Source: Nitrospirota bacterium (GTDB taxonomy: Bacteria; Nitrospirota; UBA9217). From it: a stretch of 64,000 nucleotides of DNA. The notes beneath the pieces are model-generated. The model did no database searches and was not told where the DNA came from. It saw only the letters and a program-made list of their open reading frames with translations. The DNA is taken from positions 1,088,001 to 1,152,000 of the forward strand of contig CAVVUN010000015.1 of the NCBI GenBank assembly GCA_963751455.1, given 5' to 3'. Position 1 is the first letter of the stretch; every line of letters starts with the position of its first letter. Positions 42,511 through 59,673 of this stretch are shown here, piece by piece. The translations under genes were made by a program, and so were the position numbers.

Positions 42511-42604
42511 GTGGTTTACCCCGTTAGAGAAAGCTGTGATCTTTTCAAGGCAGCTAATACTTCGTGAATTGATGCACTGACGGATTCATGCTTCGATCCG
42601 GTTT

Positions 42605-42990: not shown

Positions 42991-43048
<58 letters not shown>

Positions 43049-43066
<18 letters not shown>

Positions 43067-43567
43067 AAATAAAACAAAGCTGGTCATTCTTGACCGGCTT
43101 TTTTTATTTCAGGAAGGGGATCGAACCAAAGGGAGTTTGAGGGAAAGGATTTCACTCATGTTTCGGGAGAGGCCACGAGAGGGCAGGCCCTTTCGTGAAG
43201 CGAAGCGCGTGAGATTCCCCTTCTCGTCCACCAAAATAAAACAAAGCTGGTCATTCCTGACCGGCTTTTTTTATCTCAGGAAGGGGATCGAACCAAAGGG
43301 AGTTTGAGGGAAAGGATTTCACTCATGTTTCGGGAGAGGCCACGAGAGGGCAGGCCCTTTCGTGAAGCGAAGCGCGAGAGATTCCCCTTCTCGTCCACCA
43401 AAATAAAACAAAGCTGGTCATTCTTGACCGGCTTTTTTATTTTCATGAGAGGCGATCGAACCAAGGGAATTTGAGGGAAAGGATTTCACTCATGTTTCGG
43501 GAGAGGCCACGAGAGGGCAGGCCCTTTCGTGAAGCGAAGCGCGTGAGATTCCCCTTCTCGTCCACCA
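43049..43567 (+). repeat. Three tandem 167 bp tRNA-linked repeats
   Basis: TCCCCTTCTCGTCCACCA at 43049, 43216, 43383 and 43550; each unit has a terminator-like hairpin and an antisense T-arm copy. Confidence 0.93.
43077..43105 (+). terminator. Rho-independent terminator after tRNA-Ala (recurs in each repeat unit)
   Basis: AAGCTGGTCA-TTCT-TGACCGGCTT followed by a T run. Confidence 0.7.
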
Positions 43568-43938
43568 TAATTTCTTCCTGACAACTTCAAAAACATCCGC
43601 CTCGCGCAAAGCCGCAAAGTTTATAAACCTTAAATCAGTATTAACCATGGATGAACACGGATATTTCCGAACTGATTCGTCTCACACGGACGTACCGATT
43701 GACATAAAAATAGTTGTGTAAAGTATAAATAGAAATTACTTTACACAAACTCTGTTGTGTCGGCTTGCCCATTATGATGGCATATTGTACGGCGTTCCTA
43801 ATCCCGAAGTAAAGAAAAGGACATTGAACTGGCTGAACGCCGAATGGAAGAATGGATGCGGAGGCATCCGTCGGTTTGACCATTTTTTCTGCAACATCTA
43901 GAAAGGCGAGGTAAATCCATCTGCGAGCAATATAAATG

Positions 43939-43972: not shown

Positions 43973-45214
43973 ATGCCCATTCGAAGAAATTTACTGAAAG
44001 AGCTTCAAGCTCATCTTCCCAAGAAAGAGATGACCCTGCTGGTCGGCCCGCGTCAGGCCGGGAAAACGACCCTGATGCTGCATCTCCAGGACGACCTGCG
44101 GAACAAAGGGGAGAAGACGCTCTTCCTGAGCCTTGATTACGAGCGGGACCAGCCGCATTTCGCGGATCAGGAGGCGCTGCTCTCCCGGCTGCGCCTGGAG
44201 TTCGGCCGCAAAAAGGGGTATGTGTTCATCGACGAGATACAGAGAAAGGAGAACGCCGGAATCTTTCTCAAGGGCCTGTACGACATGCGGACGCCGTACA
44301 AGTTCATCCTCTCCGGCTCCGGAAGCGTTGAATTAAAGGAAAAGGTGCACGAGTCCCTCGCAGGCAGAAAGAGGATGTTCGAGCTTTCCACGGTCACGCT
44401 CGCGGAGTTCGTCAACTACCGGACTGCGTACAAGTATCAGGACAGGCTTGCGGACTATTTCCGTGTGAACAAGGCCGAGGCGCGGGATCTTCTGATGGAA
44501 TATCTGAACTTCGGAGGTTACCCGCGGGTGGTGCTTGAGGATACCGCGAAGGAGAAATCGGCGATCATCGACGAAATCTACCGGAGCTACATTGAAAAGG
44601 ACATCGCCTTCCTGCTGCGCGTGGAGCGGATCGACGCGTTCGGAAATCTGATACGCATGCTCGCGGACCGGATCGGCGGCATGACCAACCTGAATGAGCT
44701 TTCTTCGACTCTGGGGATCTCCGTGCAGACCGTGAAGAACTATCTGTCCTATGCGGAAAAGACCTTCATCATCAGAAGGGTCACGCCCTGGTTCAAGAAC
44801 CTGAGAAGCGAGATCAGCAAATCACCGGTGATGTATTTTGGCGACCTCGGGCTCCGGAACTTCGCGCTTCGGCGGTTCGGCAGACACACGGCGCTGCACG
44901 AGACCGGGTTCCTGTTTCAAAACCTTATTCATCAACTGCTTTATGAGAAGACGCAGGAGGAGGGCGGCACGGTCCACTTCTGGAGGACGAAAGACAAGGC
45001 GGAGGTGGATTTCATCATCAATAGCGATGACGGCGTGATCCCCGTGGAGGTGAAATGCCGGGAGATGAAGAGCGGGGAGATCGGCCGCTCGCTCCGGGGC
45101 TTCATCGCGAAGTACAAGCCGAAGGAAGCGTGGGTCGTGTCGCTGGGAAGGCATGAAGACGAGAAGCTGGAAAAAACACGGGTGCGGTTCCTTCCGTTTT
45201 ATGAGTTGCTGTGA
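43973..45214 (+). CDS. AAA_14 ATPase with DUF4143 and a PD-(D/E)xK-like tail
   Basis: GPRQAGKT, FIDEIQ, SGS, ESLAGR, GGYP, EVDF..PVEVK. Confidence 0.9.
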   Translation: MPIRRNLLKELQAHLPKKEMTLLVGPRQAGKTTLMLHLQDDLRNKGEKTLFLSLDYERDQPHFADQEALLSRLRLEFGRKKGYVFIDEIQRKENAGIFLKGLYDMRTPYKFILSGSGSVELKEKVHESLAGRKRMFELSTVTLAEFVNYRTAYKYQDRLADYFRVNKAEARDLLMEYLNFGGYPRVVLEDTAKEKSAIIDEIYRSYIEKDIAFLLRVERIDAFGNLIRMLADRIGGMTNLNELSSTLGISVQTVKNYLSYAEKTFIIRRVTPWFKNLRSEISKSPVMYFGDLGLRNFALRRFGRHTALHETGFLFQNLIHQLLYEKTQEEGGTVHFWRTKDKAEVDFIINSDDGVIPVEVKCREMKSGEIGRSLRGFIAKYKPKEAWVVSLGRHEDEKLEKTRVRFLPFYELL

Positions 45215-45270
45215 CATTGCAAGGTCTCTTCTGGACTTTTTTGGCTGCTTGTAGTAAAGTGCTGAAATAC

Positions 45271-45809
45271 TTGCCCCGTTAGAGAATCGTTTTTATTATC
45301 AATGAGATTGCGCATTTGTAAATGGTCGCGAAGACAATTCCTGACCGGGAAACTCGTGATCTCTAACGGGGTGAAGGATTAATAGAAGTCGGGGAGGATC
45401 ATGGCTGATTTACCCCGCTTAGAGGTCCCTTTTACCGTGAATTAGTAGGCGTCAGTCATTCTTGGCGGATAGATCGATCGTAATTGAGAGAGGGGCGGTT
45501 TCTTGACCTCTAACGGGGTTTAGAAACAATCCAGAAAAAGATCCTCTCATTTACCCCGATAGAGATTTTTGCCCGTGCCATAGTGGAGCCGATACCATCG
45601 AAAGCGTACGACTGCGTTCGTTTGCCTATCAAGAAAAGACCGTTGAATCTCACACGGGTGAACGGAACGAGCGTGATTGGCAGCAATTCCACGATCCTTC
45701 ACCCCGTTAGAGATAGCGGCGCAAACACAACGGGTGCATAATCGGCATCGATAGCAAGGATAACGTATATCCGTCACATCAAGCAGGTCTGAATCTCTAA
45801 CGGGGTTAA
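45271..45809. repeat. Array of four inverted-repeat-bounded ~100 bp cassettes with unique interiors
   Basis: CCCCGTTAGAGA..TCTCTAACGGGG-type units at 45274-45371, 45413-45518, 45554-45658 and 45702-45805. Confidence 0.88.
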
Positions 45810-45825
45810 CCCCTACAACGAGACG

Positions 45826-46100
45826 ATGCGTATGTACTATACGTATGTTTTGCAGAGCACAAAAGACGGTAAATGGTATACGGGATTTACAGGGGATCTA
45901 CAAAAACGCTTCAGCGATCACAACGCAGGTAAAGTTCCCGTAACCAAGAACCGTGGACCGTTCGAGTTTATTACGAGGCATGCTTGCACGAGCAAGATGC
46001 TACGGCGCGGGAGAAATACTTGAAGTCGGGGATGGGCAAGCGGTATGTGAGGAATCGGCTGAAGCGTTTTTTTATGGACAAGCCCTCTTTACCCCGTTAG
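45826..46100 (+). pseudogene. Small stand-alone GIY-YIG nuclease, frameshifted near 45968
   Basis: YTYVLQS..WYTG..LQKRFSDHNAG..RGPFE, then shifted frame YYEACL..AREKYLKSGMGKRY; stop TAG lies inside the next repeat. Confidence 0.85.
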
Positions 46101-46197
46101 AACATAATTAATCTCTAACGGGGCAAGCCTTGCAGTCCCGCAATCTCTCGCCTGATTTACCCCGTTACAGATTGTTCATCATCTGTAATGGGGAGAA
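46088..46197. repeat. Two short hairpin versions of the same inverted repeat
   Basis: TTTACCCCGTTAGAAC..TCTCTAACGGGGCAA and TTTACCCCGTTACAGAT..ATCTGTAATGGGGAGAA. Confidence 0.85.
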
Positions 46198-46209
46198 CTC
46201 ACTAAGTGA

Positions 46210-46365
46210 AAAGAACTGGCCGACATTTTCATCTTCCTCACCTATCTAAGCGAGGAATACAATATCGATTTATTGAATGAGGTCGAAAAGAAAATCGGCT
46301 TGAACGAATCGAAATACCCTGTGGAAAAGGCTAAAGGCTCGTCGAGGAAATACACTGAATTGTGA
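46210..46365 (+). pseudogene. 3' relic of a MazG-like nucleotide pyrophosphohydrolase
   Basis: ELADIFIFLTYLSEEYNIDLLNEVEKKIGLNESKYPVEKAKGSSRKYTEL*; no 5' half. Confidence 0.75.
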
Positions 46366-46386
46366 TTGATATCTACTGAGGTTTTT

Positions 46387-49300
46387 ATGAGTACTGAACT
46401 GCCAATACAGGTCGGTCAACTGGTCACAGGCCCTCTTTTCAATGAGCCCATGCGGGTGGAGACAGTTCGCTCTGATGGTGCTCAGATGTGGGTTCTCGGC
46501 CTCGTTGGTGAAAAAACCCACCAATTCCGCCGCGTCACACTTACCGGATCAGATCTGAAACAGCTCATCATTCTCGATTCGATGCCGAAGTACGATGGCG
46601 ACGGTGAACTCGTGCGCCTCGGGCTACAAGCTTATTTTCTCGGCATTGCCTATGAATTCGATCCTTATTTCGGCCTCTCCATCTCTCGTGTTGATCCGCT
46701 TCCGCACCAGCTTGAAGCTGTCTATGACTACCTGCTGAAACTAGCCAGAGTTCGGTTTCTCCTTGCCGATGACGCCGGTGCAGGAAAGACCATCATGGCT
46801 GGGCTTCTCATCCGAGAGCTTAAGCTAAGGGGCTTAGCAGAGCGTATTCTTATCGTTTGTCCGTCCAACCTAACTTTTCAATGGGAACGGGAACTCAAAG
46901 ACAAGTTTGAAGAACGGTTCAAGAGAATCGTGGGTGCTGATCTCAACTCCTACAGCATGAATCAGTGGATTGAGAACAAGCAAATCATCACATCTCTTGA
47001 TCTCGCTAAGAGGGAACAGACTTTGCCGGGACTCCGGCAGGCTGAATGGGACCTGGTTATCGTAGACGAGGCGCACCGTATGTCTGCCTCTGATCCCGAA
47101 CATCGGACACAGCGCTACAGGCTTGGCGAACTGCTTCGCGATACTTCGTCACATATTCTGCTGTTGACCGCTACACCTCACAAGGGTGATCCCGAGAATT
47201 TCACCTTCTTCCTTCAGCTTCTTGATCAGGATGCCTTTGCGGATGTCCGCTCGATCCGTGAGGCAATGGACAAGCGAAGGGCACCGTTCTACCTTCGCCG
47301 GACCAAAGAGGCAATGGTTTATTTTCCTGAGCGCCAGGATGACGGCACGTGGATCGCACGGAAGATATTCACCCGTCGTATTCCGCATACAGTACAGTTC
47401 TCAATCGACGGTCCCGAAGATCAGCTCTACCGGGATGTGACCCGCTACGTCAAGCAGCAGAGCGCACAGGCCGCGGCAAATGGCGAGGATCCGCGCGCTC
47501 GTGCTATCGGTTTCTTAATGTCCCTCTATCAGCGTCGTCTAGCCTCAAGTACCTATGCAATGCGCCACTCCCTGGAGAACCGTATAAAGAGACTTAGGGA
47601 CAACCTTCAGCGCGCACAGGAATTGGCCAAAACAGCACCTCCTGATATGCCGACTGACGAGGAACTTGAGGAAATGGAGGATGCCGAGCGTGTGAAGCTG
47701 GAAGATGTAATTGAAGCATTAACACTCTCACGAAATGCGAAAGAAGTCCAAGAGGAAGTAGCTCAGCTTACTGAACTTGCACATCAGGCAAAGATTGTGG
47801 AGGAATCTGGTACAGAAGCGAAACTGTCCAGATTCAAGGATCTTCTTCAGACAGAGGGGTTCTTCGACCATCCGGACAAGCGGCTGCTGCTTTTTACTGA
47901 GTTCAAGGACACGCTGGAATATCTGGTCTCGTGCCTCAAGACCTGGGGTTTCCGCGTCGGATTCATCCACGGAGGTATGAAGCCTGGCAGCAGGAACGAG
48001 CCAGGTTCCAGGCTTTTTGCAGAAGCCCAGTTCTGGGCAGGTGATACGCAAATTCTGGTGGCAACGGAAGCGGCAGGTGAGGGCATCAACCTGCATTGCT
48101 GCAATATGCTGTTCAACTATGATATTCCCTGGAACCCGAACAGGCTTGAGCAGCGCATGGGCCGGATCCATCGTTATGGCCAAAAGAAGGATTGCCTCAT
48201 CTTCAATTTTGTCGCGGCAAATACGATTGAAGGCCGCGTGCTGCAAAAACTGCATGAAAAGCTGCAAGAGATAAGGGACGCCCTAGATGACGACGCCGTT
48301 TTTAATGTTGTCGGAGAAATTCTGCCGTCGTCGCACCTTGAACGGGTGCTCCGGGATTATTACGCTGGCGAGCTTGGTGAAGAGGATCTGGAAGATCGCA
48401 TACTTAAAGACGTAAAGGAAGACAAGTTCAGAGCAATCTGCCAAAATGCCCTTGAAGGGCTCGCTTCAAAGAAACTTAACCTGAACATGCTCGTGGAGCG
48501 TCGGGCGCTTGCGCAGGAGCGGCGGGTTGTTCCCGAGACCATAGCAAGGTTTATCAAGGAGTCATCTGGGAGAATTCCGTTTAATTTAAAACCGGTATCC
48601 GGGATGCTTCACGCCTACGAACCGTCCACAACACCACCTGTACTTCGCCGGTTTGAAATGGAGCCTGACTGGAAGCTGGCGTCTATCGCAAACAGGTATC
48701 CGCGATTCTCGACAGATAGAAAGACAGCAGAGGAAAATAATCTCGAATGGGTCACTCCCGGCCATCCTTTATTTGAAGCGCTTCGTCGTCATTCTCTTAA
48801 TCTGGCAAGAGAGGTTTTCAATCAAGGTGCATGTTTCCATTCAATCAGCCATGATAAACCCGCCCGCTTGGACTTCTATCGCGCCCGCGCCGTGGACGGT
48901 CTCGGCCAGGTGATACACGAGCGTTTGTTCGCAATCCAAATAGCCGACAGCGAAGAACCGAAACTGTTCGATCCCGGTGTGCTGGGGAATCTCCAGGCCC
49001 ACAGCGCCTCCCGATGAACTGCCTAACATCGCCTATCTTCCTGAACCGTCTACCTGGTTTCATGAACATGCTCTGCGCCCCTTCATGGATGAAGTGGGAA
49101 TTGAGCGTCGCGCTGAAGTAGATCGCATTTCGCGCCATGTGGAAATATCTCTCACTGAGCTGATCCATAAGGCGGATGAACTGATTGGCAGGTTTGCCGA
49201 ATCTGCCGAACGGGGCGACGAAGGGGCCAAGGGACTTCTGGCCCAAGCAGAGGCGCGTCACCATGAATTGCTTTATCGCCGTGAAAAGAGAAGGCAGGAA

Positions 49301-49813
49301 CTGGAACGACAGAGGGCACTCAGTCTTCAGGCCGTTGACCGGATCGCGAGCGTGTTGATCCTTCCACATCCGGAGCGGGAAAAACCCGAGATGAGAAGGC
49401 TTCAGCCTGATGCGGCCGTAGAAGCGACCGCAATGCGAGTCGTGATTGAGTACGAGCAGAAGCAAGGCCGACAAGTATTCGACGTGCATGAAAAAAACCT
49501 CGGCTATGATGTGACGAGTCTCGACATCAATTCGGGAGAACTCAGGCTGATCGAGATTAAGGGCCTGGGAGCGGAGACAGGAAATATTCTTCTTACTCCG
49601 AACGAGCGCAGGGTCGCAGAAGATCGACGGGATTGTTACTACCTCTATGTTGTGACCGACTGCAACAAGGAACCGCAATTGCAGGAACCGATTAAAGACC
49701 CGGCAAGGTTCCCTTGGCATGAGGTGAAGAAAGTACAACATTATTGGCTGGAAGTGAATGCCATGACGAAGCCGATGCAAGTAAAAGAGGAACAAAAACC
49801 ATATGGCAGCTGA
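46387..49813 (+). CDS. SNF2-family helicase with C-terminal DUF3883-like nuclease domain (+1 frameshift near 48996)
   Basis: LADDAGAGKT, VDEAH, TATPH, QRMGRIHRYGQ; second frame GYDVTS..IEIKG..LTPNE. Confidence 0.88.
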
Positions 49814-50636
49814 GCACATTACCGCTCATTACGAAAATGCAATTGTAACATTTATTGATATTTTGGGATTTCGTGACATTGTACTGAATTCATCATGTAC
49901 TGATGTTGAAAGCATCCTTGAGCGGATTGAGTATTTTACCGATGCTGGAGAGCGCGATCCGGACTATGCACATTTTTCAATTGATCCCGCTGTTTACACA
50001 TTCTCTGATTCGATAATCCGCATTCGCCCAATTGAACGATATGGGAACCGTCACTATCCTGTTGGTTTACTTTTTCATGAACTTCTTGACTTGGTTCATG
50101 TGCAAGGGGGATTGTCCTATAACGGCATTCTTTTGAGGGGGGCGGTTTCATATGGATCGATTAGGATTACCGATACGCGTGTCTTTGGTCCAGCACTTAT
50201 AAGAGCGTACGAACTCGAAAAGAACTGTGCTCTTTATCCACGCATAATTATAGACCCTGAGCTCATAAGTGAGTTCCAGCGCAACCGACTATTAAGAAAT
50301 GAAATACATTCTCTCGAAGAGGAAACTCGTTATATATCAAACGTTACATCGCACAGCGATGATGGCTTCGTTTTCGTAGATTATCTCAGGGCAATGGAGT
50401 CTGAGAGCGATCCTGTGTCTTACCCTAGTTTCCTGTCAAGTCACAGAGATGTAATTATTCAACGTGCACAGGGTCATCAACTTCCGCAGAATATTGCGCA
50501 AAAGGTAATGTGGCTTGCAAGATACCATAATTCCATCATAACAGCGCTGCCGGACGAATTTTATGAACACCATCAGTTTGACAAAGATAGGTTGCTAATA
50601 ACACAAGGTGATATCGGGAATCTCGTGCAAATATGA
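49803..50636 (+). CDS. Class III nucleotide cyclase-like protein
   Basis: FIDILGF, FSDS, LRGAVSYG, FGPALIRAYELE, YPRIIID. Confidence 0.65.
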   Translation: MAAEHITAHYENAIVTFIDILGFRDIVLNSSCTDVESILERIEYFTDAGERDPDYAHFSIDPAVYTFSDSIIRIRPIERYGNRHYPVGLLFHELLDLVHVQGGLSYNGILLRGAVSYGSIRITDTRVFGPALIRAYELEKNCALYPRIIIDPELISEFQRNRLLRNEIHSLEEETRYISNVTSHSDDGFVFVDYLRAMESESDPVSYPSFLSSHRDVIIQRAQGHQLPQNIAQKVMWLARYHNSIITALPDEFYEHHQFDKDRLLITQGDIGNLVQI

Positions 50637-50679
50637 TGCAGTGAATAGCTTTGCGTTGTTACATCAGGAAGGATACTAA

Positions 50680-52755
50680 ATGCCGATTACAGATCGTCAG
50701 CGGGCATTAGCGCAGGAACGTCAATGGGCAGCTGCACGGGACACATCGCCACAAGTACGCTTAGTCGCTGGCCCAGGGACCGGGAAATCGCATACGATTG
50801 AAAAAAGAATCGCTGACTTGTTGACGGGCGGTATTCCTGCAGAAAATATATATGCGATATCGTTTACTCGCGCTGCCTGTGCGGAGCTCAGTGGCAGGGT
50901 GCAGCTTTTTTGCAGCACGCTATCATGTGCAGACGTTGCTTCAGGCGTCAGAATTTCAACGATGCATTCTCTTGCGCTTCGTATTTTGCGAAGAGCAAAT
51001 TTACTTACTTCATATCCTAGCACGCCTATGATGCTTGACAACTGGGAGCAGAGCACAATATATGACCGGGAGCTCGCCAGTAGTATCGGTTGTTCTCCTT
51101 CGCGGGCGGGTGAGATTCGTCGTGCATATGACGCTCACTGGCAAACCCTTAATCCAGACTATTTGAACCAAGCACGAATAACAACCGCCGAAATTACTGG
51201 CTTCAGAGCATTTCACGCTGCCAGAACGAATCTTTATTGTTGCGTCCTGCCGGGAGAAGTTATATTCAAATGTGTGGATGCCCTTCAGCATGGTGCCCTT
51301 CAGCAGGATCAACTACCACGAATAGATCATTTGATCGTTGATGAATATCAGGATCTGAATGCTTGCGATCAGGAATTCGTCCGACTGCTCTGCTCCCAGG
51401 GCACGATTCTATTTATTGCTGGCGACGATGACCAAAGCATTTATTCCTTCAGACATGCTAATCCAGAAGGAATAATTACCTTCCCGATCACATATCCTCA
51501 GTCATCAACGCACATATTAACAGATTGTTTTCGCTGCACGCCTGCGGTTTTGGCACCAGCAAATCGTCTTATAACATTCAATCCAAGTCGCGTGCCCAAG
51601 CAACTTGACGCTCTTTACGGGACGGCAGAACCACCCGTTGCGGGACAAGTCGCGGTGTGGTCTTTTTCGACAGCACAGCAGGAGGCGCAGGCTATAGCAA
51701 AGTCATGCAAAGAACTGCTTGACGCCGGTTTGTCGGGTAGAGAAAACGAGATTCTAATACTGGTAGCGAATCGAAGGGTACAGTTGAATCTTATTACACA
51801 AGAGCTGGGAAATCTTGGTTTACCTTACGAGCCGCCTAAAGACGCAAGTTTGACGGGGTATGCGTCGATCCGAGTTATCTACTCTATATTACGTCTTGTC
51901 CGCGAGCAAGCAACGGGGGAGGCAGATTATCCTGCTTATCGTGATGTCTTGGAATTGTTGCACGGTGTAGGCCAAGCAACGGCAAAGTCAATTGCCGATG
52001 ATTGCATAACGCACAATCAAAACTATCGAGATTTATATCATTTACAATCGGCACCTCGTTGGCTTGCCGGCCGTGCCTCCGCCGCCGTTCAGCGGGTTAT
52101 ATCAATTGTACAGGCTGTTAGTTCTTGGGTTATGTCCGATACATTATCAGCCCGTTCTGCCGATATGGAATACGTTCTCCGGTCACTGGTTTTCACGACA
52201 GGAGGACAAGCGACAACTGCCATAGCAGAATGGAATACCCTTTCTGGAGCACTTCCACAGGAAATGACTCTCGAAGAACTACTCCAATTTCTGTCCGCTG
52301 ATACAGAGACTGAACAGCAGGCTATTCTTGATATCGTCTCTCAGCGAATAGGAACAGCCTCGCAAGCAGCAGAATCTAATTCTCACACGCCTGGTCAGAA
52401 GAAGATTAGAATATTAACTATGCACGGTGCAAAAGGTCTAAGTGGAAAGATTGTCTTTATTCCTTCAGCAGAACAGGGGATTATGCCCAATTCAGCTGCA
52501 TTACAGGCAACGGGCCTTCTTATTGAGCAACGACGTCTTTTTTATGTATCGTTAACGCGAGCAATGGCATGCTGTATCATATCGCACGCTGCGCAACATA
52601 CGGGTGCTGCGGCTATGACCCTCGCACAGCGATCTTCTGTGCGGTTACCAAGATCACAGTTTTTGAGTGAGATGGGTGTAACCAGTGTTAACAGGGCAGT
52701 AGGATTAAGTCAGGCGGAAGCATCAAGGATCATAATTGATGTAAACAATCTTTAA
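50680..52755 (+). CDS. UvrD/PcrA-like SF1 helicase
   Basis: AGPGTGKS, VDEYQD, GDDDQSIYSFR, TMHGAKGL, RRLFYVSLTRA. Confidence 0.92.
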   Translation: MPITDRQRALAQERQWAAARDTSPQVRLVAGPGTGKSHTIEKRIADLLTGGIPAENIYAISFTRAACAELSGRVQLFCSTLSCADVASGVRISTMHSLALRILRRANLLTSYPSTPMMLDNWEQSTIYDRELASSIGCSPSRAGEIRRAYDAHWQTLNPDYLNQARITTAEITGFRAFHAARTNLYCCVLPGEVIFKCVDALQHGALQQDQLPRIDHLIVDEYQDLNACDQEFVRLLCSQGTILFIAGDDDQSIYSFRHANPEGIITFPITYPQSSTHILTDCFRCTPAVLAPANRLITFNPSRVPKQLDALYGTAEPPVAGQVAVWSFSTAQQEAQAIAKSCKELLDAGLSGRENEILILVANRRVQLNLITQELGNLGLPYEPPKDASLTGYASIRVIYSILRLVREQATGEADYPAYRDVLELLHGVGQATAKSIADDCITHNQNYRDLYHLQSAPRWLAGRASAAVQRVISIVQAVSSWVMSDTLSARSADMEYVLRSLVFTTGGQATTAIAEWNTLSGALPQEMTLEELLQFLSADTETEQQAILDIVSQRIGTASQAAESNSHTPGQKKIRILTMHGAKGLSGKIVFIPSAEQGIMPNSAALQATGLLIEQRRLFYVSLTRAMACCIISHAAQHTGAAAMTLAQRSSVRLPRSQFLSEMGVTSVNRAVGLSQAEASRIIIDVNNL

Positions 52756-52797
52756 AATTTCGTTGCTGCTATCCGTATATTTAGAAAGGAAAGGTTA

Positions 52798-55791
52798 TTG
52801 ATCCCCAAAGAATGTAAACGCCTTGCAGAAGTGGATTTTCCGATTGCTGTCGTGAGCAAGCATTCGGCACGGGAGAAATACGTTCGACAAGGTCATCCGA
52901 GTACATTACATCTTTGGTGGGCGCGTCGGCCGCTGGCTGCATGCCGCGCTATATTATTGGGTTTATTGTTACCCGATCCTTGTGATCCATATTGTCCGGA
53001 TGACTTCAAGAGAGAGTCGATTAAGCTGCTGAGGCGCGATGCTGCTACATCAGACAAATCTCTGCAAAAAGCTCTTCTCAAATTTATCGGAGATTTTGCG
53101 AACTGGGAGGCCGCTGCAGACAGAAAATACCTCGAAATAGGTCGTGGTTTAATCAAGGCAGCACATCCGAATGAGAAACCATTAGTGGTCGATCCTTTTA
53201 CAGGTGGTGGTTCTATTCCCTTTGAAGCACTTCGATTGGGGTGCGATGCCTTTGCTAGTGACCTTAATCCTGTTGCACGCTTGGTTCAAAAGGTGTTATT
53301 GGAAGACATTCCACGACATGGTCAACGATTGGCAGAGGAGTTGCGCAATACGGGAGAGGAAATACGCAAAGCTGCTGAAAAAGAGCTTGCGAACTATTAT
53401 CCAGTAGATGCAGATGGGTCGCGTCCTATCGTTTATTTGTGGGCGCGCACTGTTCAGTGTGAATCTCCAAATTGCGGCGCCGAAATGCCGCTTATACGGT
53501 CTTTTTGGTTGTCCAAGAAATCAAATCGAAAAAGTGCGCTGAAATATGAAGTGATACGGCAAAAAGGGAAACCGCCCCGTGTTGAATTCGACATTTTTGA
53601 ACCAAAGAGAGATAAAGAAGTTCCAACTGCAACGATTACACAGGCAAGAGCTACCTGTCTTTGCTGCGGGTCAGTTCTATCTCCTGACCGCGTAAGGGTA
53701 CAGCTTACAACAATGCGTGGGGGAGCGGATGTTAGTTTTGATAAACACGGCAGCCGTATCGGTGGAGCGCGTTTACTTGTTGTTGTTATTTTGAAGGAGA
53801 ACGATCCAGGACGTCATTACCGCTTACCTGCTAATAAGGACTATGAAGCTGTATGGAGAGCAAAGAAAAGTCTTGACAGATTGTCTCACCAAAAACAAGA
53901 TGGCGATCAAGAATTATCGATGGTTCCCGATGAAGTAATATCCCTGAATGAGATTAGACGAATATCGGTGCCGATCTATGGTGCAACAACTTGGGGTGAT
54001 ATTTTTACATCACGACAAAAGCGTACGCTGTCTACGTACTCTGCGCTTGTCAGAAAAAATAACAATAAAGATACTGCCGCTATGTTGGCTCTTGCAGTTG
54101 ATAGAATGATCATGCTATTAAGTGCGCATTGTCGCTGGAAGCCTACAGGAGAAACGCTGATTGATATGTTTGGCCGTCACGCAATCGGCATGGTCTGGGA
54201 TTTTGCGGAAGCCGTCCCGGGTGTCCAGACATCAAGTATATTCAAAGGATGGATTGACGCGTATGTAAAATTTAGCGAAGACATTTCACGGCTATCATTA
54301 GAGCCTGCACAGGTCATATCCGCAGATGCGTGTAAACATCCGCTGCCTGACTCATCCTGTAGCATCTGGTTTACAGATCCGCCCTACTATGACTCAATCC
54401 CTTATGCGCATCTTGCAGATTGTTTTTATGTCTGGTTAAGAAGAATGTTATCAAATAGTCCTTTACTGAAAGCCTTTACAACTGAACTGACGCCTAAAGA
54501 AGCAGAATGTGTAGTTGATCGTCCACATCGGTTAAGTACTTCAAAAAAAGATGCAAAATATTTTGAAGAGGGTATAAAAGCAGCGTCTGCCGAAGGCCGT
54601 CGAATTCTTGCCGATGATGGTATCGGCTGTATAGTTTTTGCCCACAAAACTACTGAGGGATGGGAATCTCTGCTATCAGGCATTATACAAGCAGGTTGGT
54701 CGGTGACTGCATCATGGCCTATTTCTACTGAGCTTGCTACCCGATTAAATGCAAGAGACACGGCTTCATTAGATGCAAGTATTCATCTTATTTGTCGTCC
54801 TCGTATTAACGATCAGGTCGGTGACTGGGGTGAAGTTCTTAGAGAACTACCGAAGCGAGTAGGTGACTGGATAGAGCGGCTCCAGGCTGAACATGTGCGT
54901 GGGGCTGATCTAGTATTTGCCTGTATAGGCCCAGCGCTAGAAATATTCAGTCGGTATTCTCGTGTCGAGACAGCGGATGGGAAAGAGGTCCCGCTTGCGG
55001 AGTACCTTGCGAAGGTTTGGGAAGTGGTTGGGCGGACGGCGTTGGAGCATGTGCTCGGAACAGCCGAGGCCAAGGCGCGGAATGGAATGGCAGGCGCATT
55101 GGAAGAGGACGCGCGGTTGACCGCGCTATTTCTCTGGACGCTTCAGAGTACCAATGGCGATGCTGATTCCCCCTCACCCCGGCCCTCTCCCGCAAGGGGC
55201 GAGGGAGTAGATGAGGAAAGCTCTGACGATGAAGATGAGGATGTAGGGGCAAAGGGAAAAAAGGGTGGTTACAGCCTTATTTACGATGTTGCACGAAGAT
55301 TTGCACAACCTCTCGGTATTCACTTGGAGAAATGGGAAGGCAGGATCATCGAAACAACAAAAGGGGTCGTTCGGCTTTTGCCTGTGCATGAGCGAGCGAA
55401 GCAACTTTTCGGTGAGGCAGGTGTGCAGGCTGTCGCCGAGCAAATGAAACACAAAAGGGCCGAATCACTGCAAATGACTCTTTTTGCCCATGCGGAGTTG
55501 CCAGCCGCGGCTGAAGTATCAAAATCTGGTCGAAAGAATAAGACGAGGATCGAGATTTCCGACGATGCCGTAGAAACGCGGAAGATTGAGGCGACGACTC
55601 TCGACCGCGTGCATGCTGCGATGCTCCTTCAGGCTGGCGGGCAGTCCAATGCTCTTCGGGCCTTACTCAAGGCGGAGCAGGAACGCGGGCCGGATTTTCT
55701 GCGGTTGTCAAACGCGCTTTCGGCTCTGTATCCGCGCGAGAGCGAAGAGAAGCGGCTGCTTGATGCGATGCTTTTGGCAGTGCCGAGGTAA
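52798..55791 (+). CDS. DUF1156-containing DNA amino-methyltransferase
   Basis: LHLWWARRPLAACRA, DPFTGGGSIP, TDPPYY, FAHK. Confidence 0.9.
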   Translation: MIPKECKRLAEVDFPIAVVSKHSAREKYVRQGHPSTLHLWWARRPLAACRAILLGLLLPDPCDPYCPDDFKRESIKLLRRDAATSDKSLQKALLKFIGDFANWEAAADRKYLEIGRGLIKAAHPNEKPLVVDPFTGGGSIPFEALRLGCDAFASDLNPVARLVQKVLLEDIPRHGQRLAEELRNTGEEIRKAAEKELANYYPVDADGSRPIVYLWARTVQCESPNCGAEMPLIRSFWLSKKSNRKSALKYEVIRQKGKPPRVEFDIFEPKRDKEVPTATITQARATCLCCGSVLSPDRVRVQLTTMRGGADVSFDKHGSRIGGARLLVVVILKENDPGRHYRLPANKDYEAVWRAKKSLDRLSHQKQDGDQELSMVPDEVISLNEIRRISVPIYGATTWGDIFTSRQKRTLSTYSALVRKNNNKDTAAMLALAVDRMIMLLSAHCRWKPTGETLIDMFGRHAIGMVWDFAEAVPGVQTSSIFKGWIDAYVKFSEDISRLSLEPAQVISADACKHPLPDSSCSIWFTDPPYYDSIPYAHLADCFYVWLRRMLSNSPLLKAFTTELTPKEAECVVDRPHRLSTSKKDAKYFEEGIKAASAEGRRILADDGIGCIVFAHKTTEGWESLLSGIIQAGWSVTASWPISTELATRLNARDTASLDASIHLICRPRINDQVGDWGEVLRELPKRVGDWIERLQAEHVRGADLVFACIGPALEIFSRYSRVETADGKEVPLAEYLAKVWEVVGRTALEHVLGTAEAKARNGMAGALEEDARLTALFLWTLQSTNGDADSPSPRPSPARGEGVDEESSDDEDEDVGAKGKKGGYSLIYDVARRFAQPLGIHLEKWEGRIIETTKGVVRLLPVHERAKQLFGEAGVQAVAEQMKHKRAESLQMTLFAHAELPAAAEVSKSGRKNKTRIEISDDAVETRKIEATTLDRVHAAMLLQAGGQSNALRALLKAEQERGPDFLRLSNALSALYPRESEEKRLLDAMLLAVPR
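55169..55207 (+). repeat. REP-like hairpin in-frame within the methyltransferase
   Basis: CCCCCTCACCCCGGCCCTCTCCCGCAAGGGGCGAGGGAG encodes PSPRPSPARGEG. Confidence 0.7.
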
Positions 55792-55847
55792 ACGTAAGGC
55801 AAGAAAAAGGCCTTGCAATTTTCCACCACAAATGGCATTATTTCAGC

Positions 55848-56183
55848 ATGAAAGTAGTGGAAAAAGATAAAGTCGTCAGCGGCATGCTTCGGGACGAGCT
55901 CAAACGATGCCAGGAGATGCTCGCCGGTCTGCAGAAGTCCGCTGCAGCGCTTCCCAAAGGTGTTCTCAGCGAACGGAAGAAGCGATACAAACAAAAAGCC
56001 TATTCCTACTTTTCGTTGAAATACCGCGACGGGAAACAGGTTGTCAATAAGCACATACCGAACGCCGACGCGCCGGCGCTGGCGAAGAAACTCGATCAAA
56101 GAAAGCAGCTCGAAAAAGAGGCGCTGGCGTATGAGAAAAGAATCGTTTATCTTTCGAAGATCCTGAAAACCGGCAAGGGCTGA
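55848..56183 (+). CDS. Small basic protein (DUF6788-like)
   Basis: LPKGVL..YSYFSLKYRDGKQVVNKHI; own promoter TTGCAA-17-CATTAT. Confidence 0.7.
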   Translation: MKVVEKDKVVSGMLRDELKRCQEMLAGLQKSAAALPKGVLSERKKRYKQKAYSYFSLKYRDGKQVVNKHIPNADAPALAKKLDQRKQLEKEALAYEKRIVYLSKILKTGKG

Positions 56184-56187
56184 AGGC

Positions 56188-56877
56188 ATGCTGCTGACGA
56201 TTCCTCTCACGAACAAGAACATCTTTCCGCCCGAGGTTGCTGAGCTGTTTCAGGCTCTCCACAACGCAAGTTTCTTTGAAGAGTCCATGCTGATCGGAAG
56301 CTGGGTCATGCCCCTGTATCAGGCCGCCTTCGGCATGTCCTATGTGCTTCGCACGCTCGACATTGATTTCGCGGTCCAGTTTGCCGCATCCGACAGAATC
56401 AGGAAGTCCGATATCGAGAGCATCATCACGGCCTTAGGCTATCTGCCGGTCATGATGCAATCCGGCATACGGAAGTATACGCGCGAAAATTTCAGCGTCG
56501 AATTCGTCGCACACCGGAAAGGCGGCAGAGATGACGAAGTCGTGGTGATCAGAAAATGGAACATTACCGCCGCGCCGCTTCCTTTTGTGAATATTCTTCT
56601 GGATTTTCCCTTTATCGCCGATTTCGGTGGCTTCCGCGTGAGGGCTCCGATCCCGGAAGCATACTTTATCCAAAAAATGCTTACTGCCCAGAGACGGCCC
56701 GGCGAGAGTAAAAGGGACAAGGACCTTGAACAGTGTTCGATCATAGCGCGCAGAATCGATTCGGGCAGGCTTGCAGCGGTAATCGGATCGCTTAAGCTGA
56801 GTGCGAAGAGCAAGAAAGCGTTACTCGCCTCATGCGAGGCGATCCATTTTCCACCACAGACGCTGGGTTTACGGTAG
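56188..56877 (+). CDS. GSU2403-like nucleotidyltransferase-fold protein
   Basis: LIGSW, RTLDIDF, P.PEAYFIQK, KRDKD. Confidence 0.78.
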   Translation: MLLTIPLTNKNIFPPEVAELFQALHNASFFEESMLIGSWVMPLYQAAFGMSYVLRTLDIDFAVQFAASDRIRKSDIESIITALGYLPVMMQSGIRKYTRENFSVEFVAHRKGGRDDEVVVIRKWNITAAPLPFVNILLDFPFIADFGGFRVRAPIPEAYFIQKMLTAQRRPGESKRDKDLEQCSIIARRIDSGRLAAVIGSLKLSAKSKKALLASCEAIHFPPQTLGLR

Positions 56878-56913
56878 CAGTGTAGGGGAAAGAAAAGGGC
56901 AGAGGAGGATATC

Positions 56914-59673
56914 GTGGAACCTTGGTATAAGGTAGTTACTCCCCGCAAGGAAGTTCGTGAGGGGAGATCATTCAATCCGGACGAGTTTGCAATCGCCCTT
57001 GAGCAGGTTGTGGCTAAGACCGCTCCCGAGGACTACCGCGATCCTGCAAAGTTCTTCAGCCGAACCTTTTTCTCTCGTGCTCTAACCGACCATGCCTGCA
57101 TGGTGCTTCGCCGTTTGTCGGGCGAGACGACAAATACTGCGCCGGTGCTTACGCTCATTACCCAGTTTGGCGGAGGTAAGACACATACCCTGACGACACT
57201 CTATCACCTGATCAATAGCGGCACACCTGTCGCGAAGCTTACAGGCGTACCGGAATTATTGAAACAGTCTGGACTTGCTTCTGTGCCGAAATCAAAAGTC
57301 GGCGTTTTTGTCGGCAATGCCTGGGACCCAAAGGAAGGGCATGAAACCCCTTGGATCGATCTTGCACGTCAGCTTGCGGGCGACAAAGGCGTTGCAGCCC
57401 TCGGCACATCATCCAAGACAACTCCTCCTGGAACAGAAGTTCTCGGGAAAGTATTTGACGCCGCAGGTGGTTCGGTGCTCATCCTTTTTGATGAAGTGCT
57501 CAATTTCATGAACCGCCATAGAGATATGTCGGAGCCATTCCATGCCTTTATCCAGAATCTCACCGTTGCTATGACAGGCGCCGCAAAGAGCGCGGCAGTC
57601 ATCAGCCTTCCGCGCAGCCAGGTTGAGATGACTGAATGGGATATGAAGTGGCAAGAAAAGATCACGAGGGTTGTGAGGCGAGTATCAAAGGACCTGATCG
57701 TTCTCGATGAGGCGGAAATATCAGAGGTGATCAGGCGCAGGCTCTTTGAAGACTTGGGGAATGAAAGAATCAGGAAGAACGTTGCAAAAACTTACGCAGA
57801 CTGGTGCTTTGAACGCCGCGCTCAGCTTCCTCCTGAATGGACGGCGGTTGACTCAGCTTCGAGCGAGGCAAAGTCACGCGAGTATTTACAGAGCAGGTTT
57901 GAGGCTTGTTATCCTTTTCATCCCGCCACGCTTTCCGTGTTCCAGAGAAAGTGGGCAACAGTAACCCAGTATCAACAGACACGCGGCACTCTTGCCATGC
58001 TTGCTCAGTGGATATCGTGGGCACAGAAGGACGGTTTTCAAAAGGCTAGAACTGAACCACTCATTACTCTTGGATCGGCTCCGCTCGATGTACCGGAGTT
58101 CCGCAGCGTCGTACTGGGCCAGCTCGGCGAGTCGAGGCTTCAGTTTGCTATTGATACCGATATTGCAGGGAATCATGCGCATGCCCGAGCTTTAGATGTG
58201 GATACCAAGGGGCCGCTTAAAGGTCTTCATCGCCGTGTGGCAACAGCAATTTTATTTGAATCATCGGGCGGCATGGTGGACAAAGTGGCTCATCTGCCCG
58301 AGCTCCGGTTTGCGCTGGGTGAGCCTGATGTAGATACAACCTCTGTTGACACTGCTGCACACGCACTAGAATCAAAGGCATATTATGTCAGGAAAGTTGG
58401 CACGGATGGCTTCCGGATCGGATACCAGCCTACGCTTAAAAAGGTGGTGAGCGACCGGCGTGCTTCGTTGGATGAAGAAAGCGAGATTCGCCCTGCAATG
58501 CAAACGCTCGTGAAAAGTGAGTTTGAACGAGGGCGGACAATCCCGTGGATTCTATTTCCCACGGATGGAACAGAGGTGCAGGATTCTCCTAAGCTGACTC
58601 TCATTCTTATGGACCCGAGAAATGAATGGGATGGTAATGGCGGCCTGCGCACGCGCATCGGGGAGTGGACAAAGCAGCGCGGCAGTTCACCCAGGCTCTA
58701 TCCCGGTTCGCTTGTCTGGTGTTTCAAAAAACCAGGCCGTGAACTGCACGATAAGGTTGAAATGATGCTTGCCTGGAGGCGGGTCAGACAGGAAATCGAC
58801 GATAATACACTGGGCGGAGATTTTGACCGCTCAGATAAAGCAGAGCTACATACCAAGGTAAAGGATGCCGAAGAATCGGCGAAGGATGAGGTCTGGGCGT
58901 GTTACCGATATGCAGTCCTGTATGATCCCGCGGCTAAGGACGGACTTAAAATTATTGATCTTGGAGCAGGGCATTCGAGCGCGAGTGAAACGCTTTGTGG
59001 TCGGATCATCAGCGCATTAAAAGCTGAAGCACTCTTAAACGAATCAGTAGGCGCAGGCTATCTTGATCGCAAATGGCCACCTGCGTTAAAAGAATCTGGA
59101 GCCTGGCCGCTTGGCAGCCTTCGTCAAAGTTTTTTAAACGGCACCATGCCCCGCCTTGTTGATCCGGACACGGTCCTGAGAAATAAGATCGTGGAATTCG
59201 TCGAAAGGGGCGAGATGGGGCTTGCCTCTGGCCAAAAGCAGGATGGTACTTTTGATCGAGTTTGGTTCAATGAGTCTATCGCAATAGATGAAGTCACGTT
59301 TGACACCGGTGTGTTTCTTTTGAACAGTAAGAAAGCCCGTCAGCTTAAGAGTGGAGCGACAGTTCTTCCTGCTGGCGTCGTAGTTCCACAACCGGAACCC
59401 ACCAAGACTATTCCTGTTGGATCTGATCAAACAACGGCTGTGGCGGGTGCCCAGCAGGTATGTCTGTGCTTAACGGGTGCGGTGACGCCGGAAGTATGGA
59501 ACAGGTTGGGTGTGAAACTATTGCCGAAGCTGCGAGGCGGTCAAGATTTGAAGCTCGGCATTAATTTTACTGTTACCATCGATGCCAGGTTCGCTAAGAA
59601 TACCGAAACTGAATTGCGCCAGATTATTGAAGAGCTTGGGCTCAGCGAGACGATTACAGTAGAAGTGAAATAA
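56914..59673 (+). CDS. DUF499 family ATPase
   Basis: PW..V.PR, FGGGKTH, LFDE, RRRLFE, YPFHP, QQTRG. Confidence 0.88.
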   Translation: MEPWYKVVTPRKEVREGRSFNPDEFAIALEQVVAKTAPEDYRDPAKFFSRTFFSRALTDHACMVLRRLSGETTNTAPVLTLITQFGGGKTHTLTTLYHLINSGTPVAKLTGVPELLKQSGLASVPKSKVGVFVGNAWDPKEGHETPWIDLARQLAGDKGVAALGTSSKTTPPGTEVLGKVFDAAGGSVLILFDEVLNFMNRHRDMSEPFHAFIQNLTVAMTGAAKSAAVISLPRSQVEMTEWDMKWQEKITRVVRRVSKDLIVLDEAEISEVIRRRLFEDLGNERIRKNVAKTYADWCFERRAQLPPEWTAVDSASSEAKSREYLQSRFEACYPFHPATLSVFQRKWATVTQYQQTRGTLAMLAQWISWAQKDGFQKARTEPLITLGSAPLDVPEFRSVVLGQLGESRLQFAIDTDIAGNHAHARALDVDTKGPLKGLHRRVATAILFESSGGMVDKVAHLPELRFALGEPDVDTTSVDTAAHALESKAYYVRKVGTDGFRIGYQPTLKKVVSDRRASLDEESEIRPAMQTLVKSEFERGRTIPWILFPTDGTEVQDSPKLTLILMDPRNEWDGNGGLRTRIGEWTKQRGSSPRLYPGSLVWCFKKPGRELHDKVEMMLAWRRVRQEIDDNTLGGDFDRSDKAELHTKVKDAEESAKDEVWACYRYAVLYDPAAKDGLKIIDLGAGHSSASETLCGRIISALKAEALLNESVGAGYLDRKWPPALKESGAWPLGSLRQSFLNGTMPRLVDPDTVLRNKIVEFVERGEMGLASGQKQDGTFDRVWFNESIAIDEVTFDTGVFLLNSKKARQLKSGATVLPAGVVVPQPEPTKTIPVGSDQTTAVAGAQQVCLCLTGAVTPEVWNRLGVKLLPKLRGGQDLKLGINFTVTIDARFAKNTETELRQIIEELGLSETITVEVK

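Follow-up and report, generated by a model that had tools for sequence, protein, structure and literature searches.

Seven insertions of a terminal-repeat family, likely mobilised by a small GIY-YIG nuclease, interrupt a MazG-like gene

In a 64,000-nucleotide stretch of a Nitrospirota genome (contig CAVVUN010000015.1, positions 1,088,001 to 1,152,000; hereafter the window), a MazG-like gene is broken by seven insertions at separate sites: six gene-less units and one element that carries a GIY-YIG nuclease gene. The units are very probably insertions of a single family with terminal inverted repeats. The only gene of this family encodes the nuclease, which is the likely mobiliser and would act by cutting, exchange of four-nucleotide ends and joining by the host (probability of about 0.65, based on comparison of the window with related loci).

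The linkers between the units, described in the first-pass annotation as unique sequences, are successive segments of a single MazG-like gene, which relatives have in uninterrupted form. In a comparison of positions 45150-46400 with 31 genomes, the linkers and flanks were matched and the unit interiors never were. At seven loci, the linkers are contiguous and form intact 115-123-aa ORFs (empty alleles), the intact ORF corresponding to the Pfam MazG-like family PF12643 (E 1.6e-16). One intact MazG-like copy is also present in the window's own genome (G000). Unit 1 is located in the leader of the broken gene, and units 2-6 and the nuclease element interrupt its coding sequence at separate points. 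What was first taken for a repeat array is instead a scatter of separate insertions in a host gene, arranged as follows:

45274..45371, + strand: short unit 1, a 98-bp core with outer 4-mers CTTG/TGAA, in the leader of the MazG-like gene; locus L033 lacks the unit and has 5 nt at this site
45401..45412, + strand: MazG-like piece 1, the start codon and codons 2-4
45413..45518, + strand: short unit 2, 106 bp, with TTTA on both sides versus a single TTTA in the empty allele (4-bp duplication)
45519..45551, + strand: MazG-like piece 2 (linker 2)
45554..45658, + strand: short unit 3, 105 bp, with decayed arms; a 69%-identical unit is at the same site in locus L126
45663..45697, + strand: MazG-like piece 3 (linker 3)
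45702..45805, + strand: short unit 4, 104 bp, in head-to-tail arrangement with the nuclease element; recurs at the same site in G176
45810..45825, + strand: decayed left arm of the GIY-YIG element; intact in L126 and L127, in the same decayed form in G176
45832..46072, + strand: GIY-YIG nuclease gene, 86-87 aa when intact, with a 4-nt deletion near 45966-45968 and the right arm deleted
46080..46087, + strand: MazG-like piece 4, 8 nt only, placed by its order and by a G176 unit at the same site
46092..46123, + strand: short unit 5, a 32-bp hairpin, with about 50 nt of the host gene lost
46132..46155, + strand: MazG-like piece 5, of which 23 of 24 nt match locus L037
46160..46193, + strand: short unit 6, a 34-bp hairpin
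46194..46363, + strand: MazG-like piece 6, the 3' half, which contains a stop and has lost a few bases in a small deletion

When re-measured, the first four units gave the lengths and periods (139, 141 and 148) originally reported. As also described at first, each of the four interiors has TGA as its last letters, next to the right arm, an ending that belongs to the longer arm of one subfamily, and two short hairpin units (46092-46123 and 46160-46193) are located 3' of the nuclease gene. The notion of a fixed cassette length was not borne out, with the 110 short units of the family ranging from 29 to 128 bp. At one mismatch or fewer, the arm motif has 11 matches in the window versus 0.81 expected (maximum of 4 in 100 shuffles), and 9 of the 11 fall within the kilobase of the unit cluster. 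The exact arm 10-mers number 31 genome-wide, including 7 at this cluster, and 11 more paired units are found outside it in the same genome. A lone left arm is present at 42518, in the region of the first codons of a reverse-strand TPR gene, with no near partner. The arms co-vary as proposed: AGAGGTC pairs with GACCTCT in unit 2, and TTACAGAT pairs with ATCTGTAA in unit 6. Folding of units 1, 2 and 4 gives a terminal stem between the two arms and an interior without a stable fold; in unit 3, the arms are decayed (folding z −0.6).

Related alleles show other stages of filling. At the window's site 4, L126 and L127 both have an intact nuclease element, the unusual right junction of which is shared with the window; site 3 of L126 is also occupied by a relative of unit 3, and a different unit lies further on in L127. 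In G176, unit 4 is followed by the decayed left arm, an intact nuclease gene, a unit inside the right arm and another unit at site 5. The sequence P0124, available as protein only, is a MazG start fused to the GIY-YIG domain at site 3. Unit 4 is absent from L126, L127 and one contig of sequencing run X6, and a relative of it is found at another site. Contigs from run X6 individually skip unit 2, the interior of unit 2, or unit 4 (at 80% likeness, such that other organisms are possible sources), and in the contig that skips unit 2, four letters at the junction fit both sides. Two contigs of this run, also at 80% likeness, retain the four bases lost from the window's nuclease gene. No sequencing run contained more than 6% of the window words, and no RNA run was among those listed. 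Judged by these alignments, the window's allele has the most insertions and the most decay of any in the series. Intron-like removal of the insertions that would spare the host gene is unlikely, since 3-5 nt or more are missing at the junctions and a stop interrupts the 3' piece. In a separate observation, the MazG-like genes of this family of genomes are often cut short at varied points, with unrelated genes directly after them (L309-L312, L323-L325, L327, L328 and L334), which suggests a recombination hot spot at island entrances.

The first-pass annotation also raised the possibility of a spacer-like array with transcripts that guide the nuclease in defence. The regular spacing of the units, their common polarity, their unlike interiors (the four are mutually unalignable, z at most 2.0) and the adjoining Hma-like defence locus are all compatible with this idea, yet the spacing is set by the pieces of the host gene, and the interiors follow a different pattern of inheritance. 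Unit 3 resembles the L126 unit in its interior (z 10), and the interior of unit 4 aligns with the G176 unit at the same site (18.6) and with a unit at another site (7.1). In other genomes, there are subfamilies that share interiors, as well as identical copies. Interiors are thus inherited with their site and recur at other sites as MITE subfamilies. The proposed comparison with phage and plasmid DNA was carried out: positions 45260-45830 have no match in 50,697 phage records and only two 23-nt chance matches in plasmids. In addition, the interiors match no Rfam family and have no conserved fold that could be seen, and most nuclease genes of the family have no array. The cas1 gene is absent from the window, with two matches, both on other contigs. 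The guide-array reading is largely refuted already and is considered extremely improbable. Alignment of the interiors as decayed copies of one MITE had been named in advance as evidence against guides, and here the outcome is split: the interiors do not align with each other, whereas two of them align with units elsewhere, one at a different site. Among other origins considered for the interiors, decayed copies of one MITE were rejected on this mutual unalignability, deletion derivatives of the nuclease gene on the lack of any match, and captured coding DNA on the differences between unit 3 and its L126 relative, which are distributed 7/9/10 by codon position. A search with the window interiors of the genome and the collected loci gave nothing beyond chance, and a promoter and terminator scan stayed at chance level.

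As first described, a GIY-YIG gene directly follows the first four units. It starts at 45826 or 45832, matches Pfam PF01541 and encodes a single domain of 86-87 aa when intact. The reported frameshift corresponds to the 4-nt deletion near 45966-45968. The stop codon is indeed within the next arm (46098-46100), but this placement is accidental, as intact relatives stop in the right arm of their own element, which is deleted here. From its reading frame, the window's copy of the nuclease is judged to be dead. Residues Y5, Y16, R26 and E62 are invariant in 32 sequences and correspond to residues that SsnA needs, according to the accessible text of PMC11893778. Between L126 and L127, the nuclease differences by codon position are 4/0/12, and second positions are unchanged between close copies; by this measure, the nuclease is under purifying selection. 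The predicted structure is confident (pLDDT 90) and has no separate DNA-binding domain. Its best sequence and structure matches are 1zg2 (UPF0213) and Slx1, and the TIGR01453 score is far under the cut-off. In viral collections, no relative of the nuclease and one short unit were found.

The flanks of homologous genes were searched for the repeat, as had been suggested, and the link between nuclease and arms holds. At least 597 relatives were confirmed in a GTDB scan, from Bacteroidota, Patescibacteria, Planctomycetota, Verrucomicrobiota, an archaeon and others, and at least 510 in a metagenome scan. Among the best 80 of the metagenome relatives, both arms flank the gene in 78 by direct motif search and in 53 by a blind inverted-repeat test. 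Among the best 80 of the GTDB relatives, both arms are present at one mismatch in 43, and the blind test recovers an inverted repeat of 12-13 of 13 positions in 68. As a control, 27 other small GIY-YIG loci were put through the test; 5 have an inverted repeat of this kind, in every case with a different sequence. Other small GIY-YIG clades (L016, L023, L027 and L030) are bounded by perfect inverted repeats of their own, and pairs of nuclease and repeat may be a general theme beyond Ssn and the window family. In the best relative from 151 genomes of the phylum, the left arm is located just 5' of the start codon and the right arm encodes the last residues and the stop; this element sits inside a four-helix-bundle gene. 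A YLTG C-terminus is found in 111 of 120 homologues of this relative (a query-biased count), and LTG, the translation of the right arm, ends 76 of 120 homologues of the window's C-terminal query, which itself has no such motif. Arm position 7 is altered in 33 of 135 elements, always on both sides and never on one, although the arm detector required 11 of 13 paired bases, which inflates covariation, and the loci are kin rather than independent. Arm type tracks the nuclease tree loosely. The 248 paired units comprise 137 with the nuclease gene, 110 short units and 1 chance pair. Five further units of 145-404 bp from repeat-rich genomes contain no long reading frame, and no transposase or other gene was found inside the arms of the 248 units or the five longer ones, where PF01541 is the only family present. 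As read from these loci, the element is a left arm, a nuclease gene and a right arm, about 280 bp in total, and is IS-like with MITE-like gene-less derivatives. Of the earlier suggestion of a REP/RAYT-like nuclease-repeat element, the selfish GIY-YIG element is retained, and the likeness to REP/RAYT gives way to that of IS and MITEs, since each arm is one half of a terminal inverted repeat.

Constraint extends to the four bases outside each arm and no further. A direct 4-nt duplication flanks 39 of the 110 short units (9.2 expected, maximum of 18 in 2000 shuffles) and 15 of the 137 full elements (5.2 expected), and the remaining ends are mostly mixed. The ends of full elements are mostly TTCA/TAAA (30) or TTTA/TGAA (22), which represent one configuration on opposite strands; perfect inverted end pairs are scarce (13 vs 27). 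The nuclease tree requires no fewer than 4 and as many as 13 changes between the two end forms, and thus end polarity is not fixed to the gene. An empty homologue was found for 33 of the 181 units tested, or 29 after four self-hits were removed. At these 29 sites, the number of bases replaced is 3 (7 sites), 4 (10), 5 (6), 6 (3), 11 (2) or 18 (1); replacement is exactly 4 nt at 10 of the 29, and the junctions are imprecise. Judged by these sites, the four bases outside the arms are exchanged with the target, and we infer that the junction pattern reflects 4-nt sticky ends that host repair has joined. The ends of elements, and palindromes that resemble them, also serve as targets themselves, which leads to head-to-tail runs. 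At the G111 loci L282, L284, L285 and L289, 41-bp units have inserted into the middle of another palindrome and duplicated TTTA there, and nested units with hairpin repeats of other families inside them are found at G000:C2:557912-558025, L158:1104-1231 and L276:245-501.

The proposed route of movement begins with single-stranded DNA, in which the two arms would pair into a stem. The nuclease would bind this stem, cut about 4 nt outside each arm and also open the target at a T/C-N-N-A/G tetramer. Host ligation and repair would then join the ends, with each junction keeping the tetramer of either the target or the element; about one-third of short units have a duplication and most others have mixed ends, with slips of 1-2 nt. 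GIY-YIG enzymes are hydrolases for which strand transfer is not known, so that joining must be the work of the host. A related small GIY-YIG enzyme cuts single-stranded DNA a few bases from a hairpin, as described in the accessible text of PMC11893778. The nuclease probably works close to the gene that encodes it, so that gene-less units would accumulate there, and break repair probably carries a filled allele into empty copies of the same host gene (homing). The window copy would later have lost both arms and its reading frame. Chances are about even that the family constitutes a new class of transposon, bacterial and archaeal, with a length of about 280 bp, an 86-residue GIY-YIG nuclease as its sole enzyme, excision of hairpin-ended DNA with 4-nt ends, nearby reinsertion in the sense orientation of genes, an interior that can be any 5-380 bp, and homing between copies of a host gene.

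The distribution of the short units bears on whether the nuclease or some other enzyme moves them. Short units are present in 18 of the 151 phylum genomes, and a close nuclease gene is found in only 2 of these 18 drafts. No nuclease gene was found in five repeat-rich drafts (65-99% complete), one of which holds four identical 41-bp copies. The 16 of 18 short-unit genomes that have no close nuclease gene in their drafts would be explained if the units were MITEs moved in trans by an HUH or DDE transposase, with the GIY-YIG nuclease as cargo that promotes persistence, for example by cutting empty alleles. The window's genome has 33 Y1_Tnp matches (IS200/RAYT-type HUH), one of them about 290 bp from a dispersed unit and none in the window, and some DDE families make 4-bp duplications. 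This explanation is nonetheless considered unlikely. No transposase is found inside the arms of the 248 units or the five longer ones, the right arm is fused into the nuclease coding sequence, the arm type loosely follows the nuclease tree, and mixed ends and slips are a poor fit for the clean strand transfer of DDE enzymes. Short units also cluster at the nuclease gene: their density is 4.4 times higher within 500 nt of it (20 in 120,576 nt vs 18 in 478,012).

Elements of the family are concentrated in particular host genes, with ORF6N genes hosting 36 of 68 metagenome elements and integron integrase genes hosting 13 of 64 GTDB elements. Within each host gene, the insertion positions are many and different, and the nuclease is co-oriented with the host gene in 54 of 55 assigned cases (kin, not independent). 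In the MazG-like series, from which the truncated allele L038 was dropped, likeness among the four filled alleles is 75-86%, compared with about 94% among the nucleases they carry, and an empty allele is the nearest neighbour of each. The filled alleles group together in 0 of 200 bootstrap trees, and the AU test does not clearly reject a single clade (p 0.069, 0.052 and 0.032). The concentration in host genes and the odd junction that the filled MazG-like alleles share, yet without forming one clade, are what a free-standing homing endonuclease would produce if the element were copied only by recombination after empty alleles are cut and new sites were rare repair accidents. In such a case, however, many sites per host gene and many host genes would not be expected, nor would 11 dispersed units in the window's genome or duplication of the target tetramer, and the protein has no separate DNA-binding domain to recognize a long homing site; homing as the sole process is therefore improbable. 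Local hopping by the nuclease together with homing is the best explanation of the clustering, the orientation and the pattern of filled alleles; the signal of homing is weak, and the tree of these alleles could also be produced by precise excision or ordinary recombination. The integron integrase hosts relate to a further possibility, that of minimal integron-type cassettes moved by the integrase. The arms contain GTTAGAG/CTCTAAC, which resembles the attC core GTTRRRY. Against this possibility, GTT is changed to GTG or GTC on both arms in the 33 of 135 elements noted above, the junctions are outside the arms rather than within GTT, and insertion into an integrase gene destroys that gene; a role for the integrase is very improbable.

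The broken gene lies between defence-related genes. Directly upstream of the MazG-like leader, an ATPase with AAA_14 and DUF4143 domains (43973-45214) matches PADLOC PDC-S01. Downstream, an Hma-like defence locus (46366-59673) encodes an HmaA-like helicase, interrupted near 49000 so that it occupies two overlapping frames, an HmaB-like methylase (52798-55791) and an HmaC-like ATPase (56914-59673), with a UvrD-like gene and a gene of no assigned family between the Hma-like genes. The Hma-like genes agree with the defence-island setting given in the first-pass annotation, but the locus looks more like a tolerated landing zone. At 42991-43571, a tRNA-Ala(CGC) precedes a tandem array, 3.1 copies long, of a 167-bp repeat whose first part is the 3' end of the tRNA. 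Small GIY-YIG genes on neighbouring branches (L004, L006 and L014) are found beside tRNA-like sequence, and none adjoins the tRNA repeat of the window. The window's genome also contains 12 SRM-like repeats, as well as broken genes at G000:C7:13701-13880 and C2:424672-425107 that we take to resemble Ssn-type nucleases.

If the nuclease moves these elements, it would add a chemistry to those of bacterial transposition, in one of the smallest mobile elements that encode their own enzyme, and the question raised by Ssn, whether a small GIY-YIG nuclease spreads repeats, would become directly testable in a system with known ends, targets and allele series. An 86-residue enzyme with 13-nt ends and a free interior would also be a very compact tool. 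If another enzyme is the mover, the units would still represent a large MITE family, not described before, in which the nuclease is a passenger. The family is widespread in either case (at least 597 and at least 510 relatives in the two scans), and its insertions disrupt integron integrase, ORF6N and MazG-like genes located in defence and accessory regions.

Compared with known systems, the family resembles insertion sequences and MITEs in its terminal inverted repeats, gene-less derivatives, empty sites, 4-bp duplications and orphan copies without a parent. It differs from insertion sequences in the absence of a DDE, HUH, serine or tyrosine enzyme, in its total length of about 280 bp, and in a target duplication limited to 39 of 110 short and 15 of 137 full copies, most ends being mixed. 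GIY-YIG homing endonucleases such as I-TevI and the seg genes share the catalytic fold and the spread of a filled site among host alleles; unlike these, the window family has no DNA-binding extension and no intron, has terminal repeats and uses many target sites. Like the REP/REPIN-RAYT systems, studied by Bertels and Rainey and by Nunvar, it has spaced, paired inverted repeats both near a small enzyme gene and dispersed, whereas its enzyme is GIY-YIG rather than HUH, its arm is not itself a palindrome, its units lie in genes and the enzyme gene itself moves. In fold and size, the nuclease is similar to the stand-alone Slx1-like/UPF0213 GIY-YIG proteins (PMC1564403; PDB 1zg2, 1ywl). In the covered part of PMC1564403, the Slx1-like proteins are described as minimal and probably ancestral nucleases with a predicted role in repair, a parasitic nature is merely posed as a question and, unlike the window family, the proteins are listed without such elements.

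The closest published system is Ssn/NTS (Chenal et al. 2025, PMC11893778; CDD cd10448), which belongs to a different clade; the window family may work like Ssn and, from the comparison below, does not appear to be a member. In the accessible text of that study, Ssn is a small GIY-YIG nuclease that cuts single-stranded DNA a few bases from a hairpin repeat, the NTS-ssnA-NTS arrangement is called IS-like, and the enzyme is suggested to have spread the repeats. Both systems, as far as that text describes Ssn, have a single-domain GIY-YIG protein of less than 100 aa (about 85-100 aa in the window family, with the catalytic Tyr, Tyr and Glu), own inverted repeats that flank the gene and many gene-less copies. 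In contrast, the window family forms its own branch (96/96) apart from the NTS-flanked L018 and L021, which stood in for the Ssn clade, and an SRM is present within 500 nt in 0 of 160 loci and absent from 44700-46700 (the search pattern found 1 of 2 NTS-flanked controls). Within the same portion of PMC11893778, each SRM is a hairpin of 20-50 nt and NTS are rarely in genes (2%), whereas the window family has two 13-nt arms around a variable interior, and its units break genes. Insertion footprints are seen for the window family; transposition of Ssn was not tested in PMC11893778, as far as the text was covered. The all-GIY-YIG tree of that study may include the window clade, and a literature search, mostly outside subscription journals, found no description of the family. 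New here are the allele series, the clustering in host genes, the co-orientation in 54 of 55 cases and a hint of homing.
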